Positions 54,788 through 61,749 are shown, counted from the first letter of the stretch. The stretch is 64,000 bases of DNA from an uncultured delta proteobacterium (GCA_963790475.1 CAWBOS010000013.1:449730-513729); one strand, 5' to 3'. Program-made: numbers and translations. Notes: a model not told the origin generated them from the letters alone.

Positions 54788-54835
54788 GCCCAACAAATTA
54801 TTCTTAAAATTTCTGCCTATTGCCTTAATCCAATG
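54788..54835 (-). other. attI-like site copy A
   Basis: Minus strand TAGGCAGAAATTTTAAGAATAATTT-GTTGGGC directly before ddl. Confidence 0.55.
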
Positions 54836-54969
54836 TGCCTTTTTCGCAGATTACGCATGGTGTCCAATTACCTCAATTTTGATGTCGAATGCCGCGCTTA
54901 ACCCGACGGGCAAGAAAAAAAATTGTTTGACAGTTTTACAAAAGTTCAAAAAACAAAAACTCCTGATAG

Positions 54970-55009
54970 AGCGAACGCCTATCCGGGCTAGTTCAAGCGC
55001 TTGTTCTGC
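54970..55009 (-). other. shortened attC-like site after brnA
   Basis: GCAGAAC...GTTCGCT; near-complement of the cassette start GTTCCGC. Confidence 0.4.
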
Positions 55010-55291
55010 CGGAATGATTTTTGTGTGCTTCTTTGTAAGCCTTAAGCAACGAGTTAATTCGTGTTTGATAACCTGTTCCCTGTTTTTTAAACCATGTTAA
55101 AACATCATCATCTATCCGTAAGGTAACCTGGCTTTTTCGTACCACAGGTTTCAGCCCTTTCTAAGAATAGCTTTTGCAAACATTTCGGGAGTAACCTCAG
55201 GATTATCAGAAAAATCTATTTCATTATCTTGAAGTTTATCAACTCGTTCCCAGTCAGTCTGGGATTTGGGAGAAATATGCTTTTTCTTCAT
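54993..55291 (-). CDS. brnA: BrnA-family antitoxin, frameshift near 55135 (absent from ORF track)
   Basis: MKKKHISPKSQTDWERV..IDFSDNPE then VTLRIDDDVLTWFK..GTGYQTRIN. Confidence 0.8.
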
Positions 55292-55529
55292 ATTTTGTCG
55301 CCTTTCGTATTGAAATAATTCTTATGGAATTTTCGGTTTCTGTGTGAACGACCACAACGACTCTACCATCCAGAATCCCAAATGTAACAAAACGCTCTTC
55401 TCCATAATTAAAGCGATAATCTTCAATTGTAAGAGTATAGCCGGCAAAAATCATTGGAGCATTAATGAAATCAATTCCATGCTTCCTAATATTCGATTTG
55501 CGCTTTATATCATCCCATTCAAAATTCAT
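55254..55529 (-). CDS. brnT: BrnT-family toxin
   Basis: FEWDD.KRKSN.RKHGIDF, YGEER, RIISIRKAT. Confidence 0.93.
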   Translation of the reverse strand: MNFEWDDIKRKSNIRKHGIDFINAPMIFAGYTLTIEDYRFNYGEERFVTFGILDGRVVVVVHTETENSIRIISIRKATKYEEKAYFSQIPD

Positions 55530-55534
55530 ATATT

Positions 55535-55563
55535 ATTGTAGTTACAATTTGTCAATACGTCAA
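55535..55563 (-). promoter_or_regulatory. sigma70 promoter of brnTA with palindromic operator
   Basis: TTGACG-17-TACAAT on minus; ATTGTA-N2-TACAAT palindrome over the -10. Confidence 0.7.
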
Positions 55564-55617
55564 GTGTTATTATTTTATATCATTGACGTCTTAAAGGCAG
55601 AATCGAGGCGCAGTTGC

Positions 55618-55728
55618 GCGGAACAAGTTATTCTAATATTTCTGGATAACTCCATAATCCAGGGGGTTCCTTCAGGACTGTATAAAAGAAATTTCATGTT
55701 GTCTGCCCTGCCCGGGATTTCAGCGAAA
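55618..55728 (-). other. attI-like site copy B (long form)
   Basis: About 105 bp similar to 58504-58612, ending AGAATAACTT-GTTCCGC. Confidence 0.55.
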
Positions 55729-55755
55729 CCAACGACCACACTAGCTTCTCGGGAA

Positions 55756-56388
55756 TCAATCCTCCTCGGAATACTGCGGTGGACTTGCTCCAACTCTTTT
55801 GGTCACTCTGGGATACTCCCCTTTGGGAATTTCCTCCTTGATGGAGATCACATTGATCTGATGCCACCAATCATCTCCAAAGTCGAACCAGTAGCCAAAG
55901 GCCTCATCCACTTTCAATCCTAAAGAGCCTATAGTCGTCTTTTCCACATCTCCCGCCGGCTCTGGCTCACCAAAATCATCCTCCCTCTCCACAGGTAACC
56001 CATAGCGCTTGGCTTCAGGATCTTGAGGACCATTGCCTCCTATCTGAAATTCATACATGTGCTCGTCCTCTCGATCAAAAGCGTCGAAAATCGTCTCATG
56101 GAGCTCTGATAGTGTTTGATCTCCTCGCATCTGTATAGTCCGAGAGATTGTCGGTTTTTTCTTAAGCAATTTCCGAGTCACAGGTCCACCGACGAGGAAC
56201 ACCTCCAAGGTATAGAGGCCTTTTTCTTGCCCCAGAAGTCTCTTTTCATTCTTCTTGGGTTCGGCTTGTAAAGGAGTGGTTTCTGTTTTCTTTGCAGATT
56301 TAGCCGGCTTTTTTGCGGGACTTTCCGCCTTTTTCATAGATTTCTGAGTCTTTTTTTGTGGTTTGGTTTCGGATTTGCTTTTCATCAT
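55756..56388 (-). CDS. plasmid pRiA4b ORF-3 family protein
   Basis: TLSELHETIFDAFDREDEHMYEF, YWFDFGDDWWH, PPQY. Confidence 0.88.
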   Translation of the reverse strand: MMKSKSETKPQKKTQKSMKKAESPAKKPAKSAKKTETTPLQAEPKKNEKRLLGQEKGLYTLEVFLVGGPVTRKLLKKKPTISRTIQMRGDQTLSELHETIFDAFDREDEHMYEFQIGGNGPQDPEAKRYGLPVEREDDFGEPEPAGDVEKTTIGSLGLKVDEAFGYWFDFGDDWWHQINVISIKEEIPKGEYPRVTKRVGASPPQYSEED

Positions 56389-56507
56389 AAACCCCCCTCA
56401 TTCCTACACATTCTTTTTAATTTTTTTACTCCCCAATTATAGAATATGGATTAAACCGATCATCCCAAGATTGTCGAATTATAAATCGACAATACTTTAT
56501 TACAATT

Positions 56508-59553: not shown

Positions 59554-59584
59554 AATGGTACCTCAGCAATGCTCATATTGCGCC

Positions 59585-59654
59585 GCACAACATTCCGCAT
59601 AAGCGGCATTATGCCCTTGGGGCAGACTGTCCCGACTTGATACCGTTGTTATGC
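59585..59654 (-). other. attC site
   Basis: GCATAAC...GTTGTGC on minus; GCATAAC is the exact complement of cassette start GTTATGC at 60714-60720. Confidence 0.72.
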
Positions 59655-59698
59655 GGATGCGATGCGGGTTCACAGCACGAGTTCATCCAGATTGCCCA

Positions 59699-60688
59699 CT
59701 ACGTCCTGAAATGTCTTCTGCAGTAGTCCGTAATCTCCGGTCCCTGCAAGGCCTTGGACGCAGGTCCTACCCGTATGCAAAGCTCAGGGTGGACTGGCCC
59801 GCTCTTTGGGTATAGCCATACTTCACGGTCTGTGGGTGCACATTCAACAACGCACACGCTCCGTCCAGAGTATCTTAGGATTCGGTGCTTCACATTTCCC
59901 AGAGGAGCTGGTTTGAGCTGGTCGCGGACTATGCTACCCAAATGCAACAAGAACCTGTCTTCATTCGCGAATCCGTCCTATTCGATTCCAAGTATGTTGC
60001 CGTTATCTTGAACGCCGATAAGAAGTACTCCCCCCTCAGTATTGCAGAAGGCCGCAATGGTCTTTAATACCGAATCCTCGATTCTACTGTCGTTCTCCCT
60101 AGTTCGAAGGTTTCTGCGTAGAGTAGACTTGAATTCTTGTTTGACGCTTTCGCCACGCGCTATTAGACCAAGTAATTCATTCCCGACTAGACTGAGCTGT
60201 GTTTCGGCGAGTTTCTGAATTTCGTTTGGTTCAAGTAAGGGAACTCTTATCTCCTGAAGATCTGGGATTCTTAACCTCGAAATGTGAAGGCCCATTGTTT
60301 TCCGCGCCGCCTCCTGAAGGAAACGTTCACGCCCCGGTGACGTGTTCAGATAGTCACGTAGAAAGGTGTCTTCTCGTGGCCTAATTACGGCGAGACTGTC
60401 TCCCGCAACTACCCGGGGATCTGACTGCTTAAAGATATATAGCTTCCGCTCGTCGAACAGGGTAGATACGAGGATGTCCCCCTCGCGCAGAACGGATCGC
60501 CGGAAGCTAGGCCGAGTGGACTCTGATACGAAATCGTCATGGTCGAACAGCCGAAGCTCGAGACCCGAGAGATTCCGTCCGGTTAGCAATCTATACAGAC
60601 CCTGCCTGCTTCTTTCCGAGGGTCTTGTACAGTAACCTGGGTAGACATCCGCCAAGCTCTTGATTGAAGCGAGTTTCCTTCTGGTCAT
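59699..60688 (-). pseudogene. restriction TRD-like + Schlafen/AlbA_2 domain protein with in-frame TAG at 59978-59980
   Basis: LREGDILVS..IRVP; EFKSTLR, IAAFCNTEGG.LLIGV; frame continues to IRVGPASKAL. Confidence 0.75.
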
Positions 60689-60713
60689 GTGACCCTCCGG
60701 TGGCTACTGGTAC

Positions 60714-60770
60714 GCATAACAAGCTATTCTAAAGTTTCTGCCTAATCCCAAAACTCAAGTGGTTCCTTTA
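60714..60770 (-). other. attI-like site copy D
   Basis: TTAGGCAGAAACTTTAGAATAGCTT-GTTATGC. Confidence 0.6.
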
Positions 60771-60802
60771 CTATAGGCATTGAGTCCGACCCCCCCTTCA
60801 AT

Positions 60803-61558
60803 TCATGATAGTATCCGCACTATCTCGGCAAGTAAGGCATCTATCTCGGCCGCGAAGTTCACTTGCTGCGGCTCTGGTAGCGTCTCCTTTGCACGAATCG
60901 GTCCATGCAAATATCCGTCAGCAATCTTGCGAGCAGGCTTGTCCAACCGATCCATGGTTTCCTTGAAAGAGCGTACGCCCTTGTAATTATTTGCCACTTG
61001 AGAGAAGGTTAACACTTTGAATATGGGTGGCACGTGGTCGAGGATTGCTCGCGTCAACATGGCAGTGGCCAGAAGGGCACCTCCGGTGTAAGCAATGTTG
61101 ATTTCCTCGCATAAGCGTATGAGCTTGCGAAGGTCGAAGGGAGCAGGGGCGAGCGCTCGCAGTTGAGCAATGCGTGTCTCCGAGACGAACTTGTGAACAC
61201 CCAAGGCAACCGGTTGGATAGGCGAGTACTCGATTCGAACTTCCGGTGGTCGGATACCAGGCGTCTTCTGACGATCTGGTCGAAACTGCCGTTCGATTGG
61301 CAGAAGCTGTGCCTCAATAAATTGGCTTCTTTCGACATACTTCGAAAAGATGCGCTGGATATAGTTCCAGAAGTCCCGGGTGTTCCGGCATTCGATCACA
61401 AAGTCCGGAAGCAGCTCCATGACCTCCTCATCAGTGACCAAATCGTCGCGAAGAGTGCGGTACTCCTCCGCTGCCGAGACTCTCGGCCCTTTCTCGGCGA
61501 TCATAGTCAAAATATCCCGAAACCTAGCTATTTTTTCTGCGCGCTCTGCGTTCTTCAT
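60803..61558 (-). CDS. hypothetical protein, abortive-infection-like N-terminus and HEPN-like C-terminus
   Basis: LPDFV.ECR...FWNYI..F.KY.ER; AMLTRAILDH and RKIAD.YLH. Confidence 0.6.
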   Translation of the reverse strand: MKNAERAEKIARFRDILTMIAEKGPRVSAAEEYRTLRDDLVTDEEVMELLPDFVIECRNTRDFWNYIQRIFSKYVERSQFIEAQLLPIERQFRPDRQKTPGIRPPEVRIEYSPIQPVALGVHKFVSETRIAQLRALAPAPFDLRKLIRLCEEINIAYTGGALLATAMLTRAILDHVPPIFKVLTFSQVANNYKGVRSFKETMDRLDKPARKIADGYLHGPIRAKETLPEPQQVNFAAEIDALLAEIVRILS

Positions 61559-61567
61559 AGTTTGTTG

Positions 61568-61631
61568 GTCCAACGCCTGAATTCACGGACGAACACTCGT
61601 CCGCCCCGTTCGCTCATTTATGCCGTTCTGC
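61568..61631 (-). other. degenerate attC site
   Basis: GCAGAAC...GTTGGAC on minus with imperfect arm pairing. Confidence 0.5.
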
Positions 61632-61749
61632 TTTGACTCCTGTCTGATGCTGGCCACCATGTACTTTTCTGAGGTTCTGCAGCCGTCATGTGTCAACATT
61701 TCAAGAGCGTCCCCGTATACGCTGGATCTCCTAACGCACAAGTCCCTTT

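Follow-up and report, generated by a model that had tools for sequence, protein, structure and literature searches.

The textbook integron comprises one integrase, one attI site, and one cassette array, and chromosomal integrons with an inactivated intI occur, for example, in Xanthomonas. To our knowledge, arrays without an integrase are common but unexplained, and attI sites are poorly conserved and have been annotated for only a few classes. In 10.1101/2022.09.11.507474, the integron platform is given as intI plus attI plus the cassette promoter Pc, clusters of attC sites and single attC sites without an integron integrase are called CALINs and SALINs, respectively, and the genomic sites at which cassettes insert (attG) are said to be numerous and to differ from attI and attC both in sequence and in structure. 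Here, we analyzed a stretch of 64,000 nucleotides (nt) from an uncultured delta proteobacterium (GCA_963790475.1, CAWBOS010000013.1:449730-513729; G000:C13:449730-513729 in our numbering), hereafter the window, whose right end is the end of the contig. On its minus strand, an 8-kb island contains cassettes with attC-like sites together with four copies of a non-palindromic repeat ending ..CAGAAAnnTwAGAATArnTTGTT; each copy of this repeat is termed a head. G-numbers denote related genomes (G000 being the present one), and L-numbers denote loci extracted around heads or intI.

On balance, we favor reading these repeats as integrase-less copies of the attI end of the lineage's own integron platform, behind which attC cassettes were inserted by an IntI that is absent here. 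The first-pass annotation, made from the sequence alone, had likewise proposed solo attI-like heads with attC cassettes and an integrase acting in trans, with piled-up remains of a module carrying attI as its other option, and this proposal gained support from the adjacency of heads to intI in relatives, from cargo differences between species, and from matches between cassette starts and their R'' ends above chance. The reading builds on the findings that the repeat is homologous to the element beside intI, that similarity between copies breaks off at GTT, that canonical cassettes lie behind heads, and that cargo has turned over at orthologous solo heads. As in attI with Pc (e.g., attI1 and sedentary chromosomal integrons), the relatives' heads are the first conserved sequence divergent from intI, with a predicted promoter directed toward the cassettes; moreover, heads are non-palindromic and end at G^TT (the caret marks the junction) with attC-like cassettes behind. 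Unlike attI with Pc, however, heads number ~26 per genome, are mostly without intI, and are stacked in clusters; their sequence, ~165 nt including the promoter, is conserved family-wide and beyond; the lineage's integrase carries an N-terminal extension of ~173 amino acids (aa); and the subfamily in the window has no promoter. The island resembles CALINs and SALINs in having cassettes with attC-like sites and no integrase, but a CALIN is defined by attC alone, whereas the clusters here are headed and interrupted by an attI-type element. Like attG sites, heads would accept attC cassettes at chromosomal positions that do not belong to a complete integron, presumably also by double-stranded recombination; unlike attG sites, they are one conserved element homologous to the platform's own attI region. 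Finally, integrons with an inactivated intI also combine a decayed or missing integrase, such as the remnant at C10:587 kb of this genome, with a retained attI and array, but they have one platform at one locus per genome in place of ~26 heads at many loci. No description of multicopy or orphan attI sites, or of integrons in Syntrophales, was found in the literature searched at abstract level.

Four copies of the repeat had been claimed on the minus strand of the window, and four were recovered, with the terminal GTT at 54792, 55622, 58508, and 60718 (heads A to D). The first-pass consensus, with up to three mismatches, matched 55622-55645, 58508-58531, and 60718-60741, all on the minus strand, compared with 0 matches in 100 shuffles. 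The remaining copy (GTT at 54792-54794) has a one-base insertion and was recovered by a repeat search (four copies, 29 nt) and by nhmmer (E = 2e-5). Heads B and C are 81% identical across 99 nt, so the ~105 bp that they had been said to share is about right, and head C is ~79% identical to heads in G008. In each copy, similarity ends at GTT and a gene follows, as claimed; the gap to the same-strand open reading frame (ORF) is 11 nt for head A (GTT at 54794-54792, ahead of the ATG of a ddl-like gene), 92 nt for head B, ~0 to 12 nt for head C, and 29 nt for head D. Genome-wide, too, similarity between heads ends at GTT. The window heads align with intI-adjacent heads across about 55 to 60 nt. 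No sigma-70-like promoter site was found in heads A to D, which are members of a subfamily in which no promoter is recognizable.

Heads of the main family carry a sigma-70 promoter with consensus boxes (TTGTCA-17-TATAAT), followed by a constant 128 to 134 nt from the −10 box to GTT, ending in the tail GTTAT(A/C)C-N12-ATAAC-TT-G^TT. This tail, composed of a direct GTTA-type box, an inverted copy, and the terminal GTT, is almost invariant; several 5' subfamilies have one and the same tail, and it is the tail, not the promoter, that is the most conserved part of the head. We take the layout of direct and inverted GTTA/TAAC boxes to resemble the DR, L, and R boxes of attI1. Local hairpins occur in several head subfamilies. 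Nonetheless, because RNAalifold on a 30-sequence MAFFT alignment of heads gave 0 pairs and no consensus structure, because fold z-scores were weak (means of −0.9 and −0.45, with only 6 and 3 of 30 below −2), and because Rfam gave no relevant match, we do not claim heads as structured RNA, and clear covariation was not upheld by these analyses. A known RNA family was ruled out by Rfam: there were no matches at gathering thresholds in the window, and a permissive scan of six full-length loci returned only an unrelated microRNA (E = 3.4). Heads do not look like attC sites either: a consensus structure is lacking, no R'' that could pair with the terminal GTT is visible, and there is no cargo upstream of solitary heads.

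The first-pass annotation had suggested asking whether a copy of the repeat adjoins intI, and in relatives it does. Using the integron integrase model TIGR02249 (cut-off, 265 bits), we found intI above the cut-off in 6 of 21 family genomes; G001, G002, G004, and G007 are congeners that have intI. At four of the seven full-length intI loci (L151, L152, L153, and L161), a head lies on the opposite strand, divergent from intI and at a fixed distance, with its promoter ~75 nt and its GTT ~230 nt from the intI start codon; judged by sequence, the latter is the attI/Pc position. When those four loci are compared, the similar stretch begins precisely at the intI stop codon and stops at the GTT of the head, with no similarity elsewhere, and the contigs end before the 3' end of the first cassette behind these heads. 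The integrase encoded there has 485 aa and scores 392 bits; since the model covers residues 174 to 484 only, it has an N-terminal extension of ~173 aa, which begins MLAIPS.. (L151:1498-2952 in G002, and also L152, L153, and L161). The remaining three loci form a second IntI clade, 55 to 61% identical, with no head within the flanks, one of which is only ~300 nt long. Thus, a head stands beside intI at every locus of one IntI clade. In addition, N-terminal remnants of intI, variable in length, lie beside heads at L021 (this genome), L042, L047, L059, L078, L090, L094, L100, L121, L123, and L133, which brings at least 10 further loci to the four full-length ones; the priA locus of G004 has such a remnant. 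The single decayed remnant in this genome is at C10:587184-587336, beside the head at C10:586945. Taken together, the adjacency to intI, the intI remnants, and the alignment of the window copies with the intI-adjacent heads indicate that the element is the attI/Pc end of the lineage's platform, mostly present as orphans.

Gene content behind the GTT, the second point on which a comparison of genomes had been suggested, differs between species at orthologous heads. A head lies directly downstream of dapF in G000, G005, and G008; in G004 the head is present with a toxin-antitoxin pair inserted between dapF and the head, and in G011 only the 5' half of the head is found. From the head end onward, the cargo is unrelated in all four genomes (G000, G004, G005, and G008), while the right flank is conserved: G000 has a Hypoth_Ymh and a DUF6036 gene (2.2 kb), G004 has ~0.3 kb, G008 has 3.2 kb including a second head, and G005 has at least 5 kb. 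As dapF directly abuts it, this head already lacked intI in the ancestor that the species share, and the cargo has changed since. The dapF cargo is bordered on its right by a repeat, which was considered as the second end of a two-ended element and was rejected, as it occurs only at that locus. At the priA locus, G000 has a head followed by Mrr, G004 has a truncated head followed by the intI remnant and a full head, and four congeners have nothing; the lspA locus, where the island lies, shows similar cargo differences between species.

These comparisons bear on the alternative that the heads are dead relics, each being the leftover of a complete integron after deletion of intI, with no recombination now and with the island as a fossil cassette array. 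Remnants of intI of varying length beside many heads are what such decay would leave, and the lack of intI in G000, G005, and G008, the tails that have drifted at some loci (e.g., dapF), and the window heads without promoters point the same way. However, ~26 heads per genome would require very many independent integron losses, the tail is nearly invariant across an order-level range of genomes, and the dapF head, which was solo in the ancestor of four species with no room for intI, nevertheless has different cargo in all four. We regard the relic explanation as unlikely.

Recombination at orphan attI ends, the reading that we favor, is also consistent with where similarity between heads breaks off. 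An all-against-all comparison of 107 unique head-centered segments gave 172 in-register pairwise alignments, of which 157 stop at the junction, with 78 breaking off precisely behind GTT, and 7 span it, as would be expected of crossover at G^TT in an attI site. The other eight are common only from about −32 into the downstream DNA, with the breakpoint at the inner GTTAT box, so that one tail with its cargo is found attached to head bodies that differ. We further asked whether the first 7 cargo bases (GTT plus 4) exactly complement the R'' of a downstream hairpin-capable AAC..GTT site. This was so for 9 of 83 heads, versus ~1.4 expected. Three of the 17 heads of this genome were among them (0.67 expected), namely, head D (site at 59654) and the heads of two TrmO_N cassettes, as were 6 of 66 heads in other genomes (7 candidate matches versus 0.74 expected). 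The sites of these six look like textbook attC (49 to 99 nt), and no IntI match was found in their loci. Candidate attC cassettes whose start is complementary to their own R'' thus appear to lie directly downstream of heads.

The same data weigh on a second alternative, in which the head is a portable promoter with a 5' leader, spread by duplication or homologous recombination; the intI-linked copy would be just one instance of it serving as Pc, and GTT would be the mere start of differing genes. The consensus promoter of the main family at its constant distance from GTT, the orientation of 26 of 26 copies toward a gene, the local hairpins, and the persistence of heads in genomes without intI would all suit such a module. 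It does not, however, predict exact start/R'' complementarity at 9 of 83 heads, nor that the tail should be the most conserved part instead of the promoter. The window copies have no promoter at all, and a leader finds no backing in Rfam, in a consensus structure, or in the hairpin z-scores. This explanation therefore seems to us improbable.

The element is present in many copies across the genome. An nhmmer profile built from this genome's copies and run on its contigs returned 26 heads, on the five large contigs C6, C10, C12, C13, and C15; 15 of the 26 are grouped in clusters of two to four, and all point at a same-strand ORF. Instead of one copy per integron, there are 26 heads and no intI in this genome. 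The genes behind the heads are mostly accessory and encode Mrr-type nucleases, an nSTAND3 NTPase, SNase, an AbiEii-like nucleotidyltransferase, Hypoth_Ymh, TrmO_N, radical SAM, and SAVED proteins, and toxin-antitoxin systems. Among relatives, the 20-nt tail motif, searched with up to two mismatches, was found in 22 of 41 genomes, including 17 of 20 of the family, whereas the reversed motif, used as a control, had 0 matches in 38 of 41. The 10 control matches in G000 are one unrelated repeat, consisting of ten identical copies of the 20-mer TTGTTTAATAATATTTAAAA, with one at window 7786-7805; this 20-mer presumably belongs to another multicopy element. Pattern matches in the most head-rich genomes numbered 17 in G000, 16 in G005, and 18 in G008. 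With one genome per species, the exact tail motif occurs at 87 loci; of the 80 fetched, ~70 have a full head and ~10, from unrelated taxa, do not. The full-head loci are almost all from metagenome-assembled genomes (MAGs) labeled Syntrophales, Syntrophaceae, Smithella, "Deltaproteobacteria," or Desulfobacterales and, judged by the taxa of the public records carrying the motif, the host lineage looks Syntrophales-like. Carriage by phages was rejected, as the two exact motif matches in viral contigs are without the rest of the head and are attributed to chance. An identity as a transposon or insertion sequence end, or as an omega-RNA-like scaffold, was likewise rejected: no transposase accompanies the heads consistently, and the one Y1 transposase-like gene belongs to one array only.

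In its complete form, found in relatives, the platform consists of intI, the divergent sigma-70 promoter ~75 nt from the intI start, and the tail ~130 nt further. We propose that IntI binds the GTTA/TAAC boxes of the tail and that a circular cassette, through its folded attC, undergoes strand exchange with the head at G^TT. It would thereby land directly behind the head and, in the main family, could then be transcribed from the head's own promoter. In this genome, with ~26 heads, the integrase would act in trans or have been lost. Heads D and C each hold one canonical-looking attC cassette, with the FRG cassette following the cassette behind head C. We infer that IntI acts catalytically at solo heads and is provided in trans, as we do the functions of the tail boxes and the way in which heads multiplied. 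Altogether, our data suggest that integron-style gene capture takes place at many chromosomal places and not at one.

Several observations weigh against this interpretation. First, no intI was found in this assembly by either profile or tblastn. No G000 protein reached the TIGR02249 cut-off (best, 105 bits versus 265); the TIGR02249-like matches on the contig, at C13:39964-41528 and 166296-167859, all lie outside the window and below the cut-off, so that the claim of no intI in the window stands; and tblastn with a relative's IntI detected none in the genome. Nor did the most head-rich genomes (G000, G005, and G008) show intI at E ≤ 1e-40, from which it follows that solo heads persist without a resident integrase and, for this genome, that any integrase acts in trans or was lost. 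Second, the window heads show no promoter-like site, and among the loci examined, no head of their subfamily was seen next to intI. Third, two features do not follow from simple attI × attC insertion: the 256-aa, DUF3800, and PRiA4 genes reach a head with no attC of their own in between (the ddl gene likewise lacks its own), and the left boundary of the island does not coincide with G^TT. The dapF-locus junctions, moreover, are TTG^CA, TTG^CC, and TTT^AG instead of G^TT, and G005 and G008 have a 93%-identical block of head plus SDR gene that extends from the head's 5' end to ~23 nt past the gene. Fourth, with one mismatch allowed, the start/R'' test was not significant in this genome (12 observed versus 8.7 expected), and when the window was scanned for attC-like sites by a generic energy criterion, the island was not enriched, the top matches being scattered through coding regions. 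In that scan, attC-like site 1 reached only z = −2.0, and the scan is not usable as evidence either way.

The SDR block and the clustering of heads hint that head and gene can travel together by another route, the data being too few to say how. A third alternative would have the heads themselves borne on cassettes, moving as head-plus-gene or gene-plus-head circles through attI × attI or attI × attC recombination or a second crossover inside the head and thereby stacking; this could account for the 15 of 26 heads in groups of two to four, the genes without attC that run directly into heads B, C, and D, the SDR block in two contexts, and the eight alignments with a breakpoint at the inner GTTAT box, but the independent events are few (about two loci for the −32 class, and a single head-plus-SDR pair), a gene-plus-head unit does not fit solitary heads with core or divergent genes upstream (priA and dapF), and attI1 is reported, in 10.1101/2022.09.11.507474, not to insert into genomes at a significant rate, so we find it hard to credit.

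Returning to orphan attI ends serviced by an IntI from elsewhere, a broader picture can be tentatively drawn, to which we give rather less than even credence: a distributed integron with ~20 sedentary, vertically inherited attI(+Pc) pads per genome at fixed loci (e.g., behind dapF, next to priA, and upstream of lspA), each swapping attC cassettes and all serviced in trans by one IntI. On this picture, the cassettes may be enriched in defense and toxin-antitoxin genes, the N-terminally extended IntI may often be absent or horizontally supplied, and heads may also recombine with each other, building stacks. What is new here is an attI-type element that can be recognized by sequence throughout a family. 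Its copies number in the tens per genome and mostly lack an adjoining intI, yet it still marks precisely where species begin to differ in their genes. Should the heads work in trans, these anaerobes would capture cassettes throughout the genome and not at a single integron locus, and the origin of some CALINs would be directly testable. Integrase and capture site would then be uncoupled, and CALINs could originate as arrays nucleated at orphan attI sites. The conserved tail also provides a handle for locating cassette arrays in Syntrophales-like MAGs, many of which hold defense and toxin-antitoxin genes.

The island itself (Table 1) was delimited by comparison with G011 and G012, in which lspA comes 38 to 45 nt after CopG-like and helix-turn-helix genes, whereas 8 kb separate them in G000; at this lspA locus, G008 contains another head-led gene set. 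All genes within 50 to 64 kb of the window are on the minus strand, and the island comprises four head-led modules and three canonical-looking cassettes. Folding of attC-like site 1 gave −17 kcal/mol in a 91-nt context (z = −1.6) and −11.7 kcal/mol with 12 arm pairs when constrained; site 2 gave −9.3 kcal/mol with 11 arm pairs under the same constraint. In site 3, the stretch 56525-56593 is 82 to 83% identical to sites in G016 and G013. The brnTA unit (54995-55578) is 84% identical in G004 and 80% identical in G001, with no head ahead of either. The ddl-like gene is accessory, with no match at E ≤ 1e-60 in the 13 congeners searched; head A as a housekeeping promoter of ddl was ruled out, since the genus does not conserve this gene, which is itself part of the island.

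Table 1. Features of the island, listed in order along the minus strand from the weak attC-like site (61614) to the ddl-like gene, after the island as a whole
Feature	Window position	Strand	Description and basis
Whole island	53689..61690	-	8 kb; comparison with G011 and G012
Short attC-like candidate	61568..61614	-	47 nt, AGCGAAC..GTTGGAC; −8.2 kcal/mol; weak evidence; just upstream of 256-aa gene
256-aa gene	60803..61573	-	no Pfam family; runs directly into head D without own attC
Head D	60718..60790	-	end GTT^ATGC; pattern, repeat, nhmmer; then SLFN_AlbA_2 cassette ending in attC-like site 1
236-aa gene	59978..60688	-	partial Schlafen/AlbA_2 domain; cassette between head D and attC-like site 1
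attC-like site 1	59585..59654	-	70 nt; R'' GCATAAC, R' GTTGTGC; hairpin-forming AAC..GTT
DUF3800 gene	58747..59553	-	268 aa; after attC-like site 1; ends at element X and head C without own attC
Element X	58628..58738	-	separate 110-nt repeat just upstream of head C
Head C	58508..58622	-	end GTT^GGGC; pattern, repeat, nhmmer; then three small ORFs and attC-like site 2
Three small ORFs	57578..58548	-	74, 135, and 111 aa; no Pfam matches; one cassette-like unit from head C to attC-like site 2
attC-like site 2	57424..57486	-	63 nt; R'' ACCCAAC, R' GTTAGAA; minimum-energy fold pairs AAC with GTT
FRG-domain gene	56588..57412	-	274 aa; single-gene cassette between attC-like sites 2 and 3
attC-like site 3	56508..56584	-	77 nt; R'' TTCTAAC, R' GTTAGGC; asymmetric, less canonical than sites 1 and 2
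PRiA4_ORF3-like gene	55756..56388	-	210 aa; own promoter-like site; ends at head B without own attC
Head B	55622..55720	-	end GTT^CCGC; pattern match with 1 mismatch; nhmmer E = 3e-13; then brnT/brnA cassette-like unit
brnT/brnA pair	54993..55529	-	toxin-antitoxin; own promoter-like site
Head A (attI-like)	54792..54945	-	core 54792-54857, degenerate promoter remnant to ~54945; nhmmer E = 2.1e-5; repeat family; aligned with intI-adjacent heads
ddl-like gene	53719..54780	-	D-Ala-D-Ala-ligase-like; behind head A

Four matches between cassette ends and cassette starts had been claimed for the island, and they fared differently. GTTATGC of head D and GCATAAC of attC-like site 1 match exactly (7 of 7), in a 70-nt site (59654-59585) that forms a hairpin, and GTTAGAA at the start of the FRG cassette exactly matches TTCTAAC, the R'' of site 3, with the ends paired only in the centroid fold. 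The other two are weak and hold at 6 of 7 positions only. ACCCAAC (57486) fits the proposed GTTAGGT and head C's GTTGGGC equally, at 6 of 7 each, and head C's GTTGGGC is the more plausible partner. GTTCCGC with GCAGAAC is a weak pair, with a weak fold, inside the 3' end of brnA.

Several further repeats and sites were observed in and around the island. Element X stands alone in G005 and G008, directly upstream of alkyl-sulfatase genes, and its part at 58639-58689 is 78% identical to the spacer of a 934-bp tandem unit. Window 61744-64000, up to the end of the contig, is taken up by three tandem copies of that unit, 96 to 97% identical; the products of each are a winged-helix protein of the HVO_A0114 type (124 aa) and a 94-aa protein resembling CopG antitoxins, and the unit is present as a single copy next to lspA in G011 and G012. 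Downstream of lspA, at window 53110-53200, lies an AAC..GTT hairpin-like site beginning AACCAGGCCAAGGC. The head-plus-SDR unit of G005 and G008 ends in the same 15 nt, which are similar to the 5' part of heads of the window type; a second recombination core may lie here. Upstream of an SCP2-domain gene, at window 51817-52093, a 111-nt spacer is enclosed by long imperfect inverted repeats whose 50-nt arms are 78% complementary. Across genomes of the genus, an unrelated ~145-nt repeat (L020:816-960; C6:605315-605459) has well over 100 matches, at least 19 of them in G000, and is not head-associated. Finally, in several MAGs (L094, L102, L120, L121, L083, L090, and L058), in some cases beside intI, an ORF-less structured unit directly follows the head's GTT. 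It begins with a perfect 11- to 12-bp hairpin that includes the GTT and continues with a long hairpin bounded by AAT(C)GCG..CGC(G)ATT; sequences diverge right past ATT, and then a gene follows. The unit may be an ORF-less cassette or a part of the platform, and this genome has only one good copy of its two-hairpin motif, at C12:1222055.

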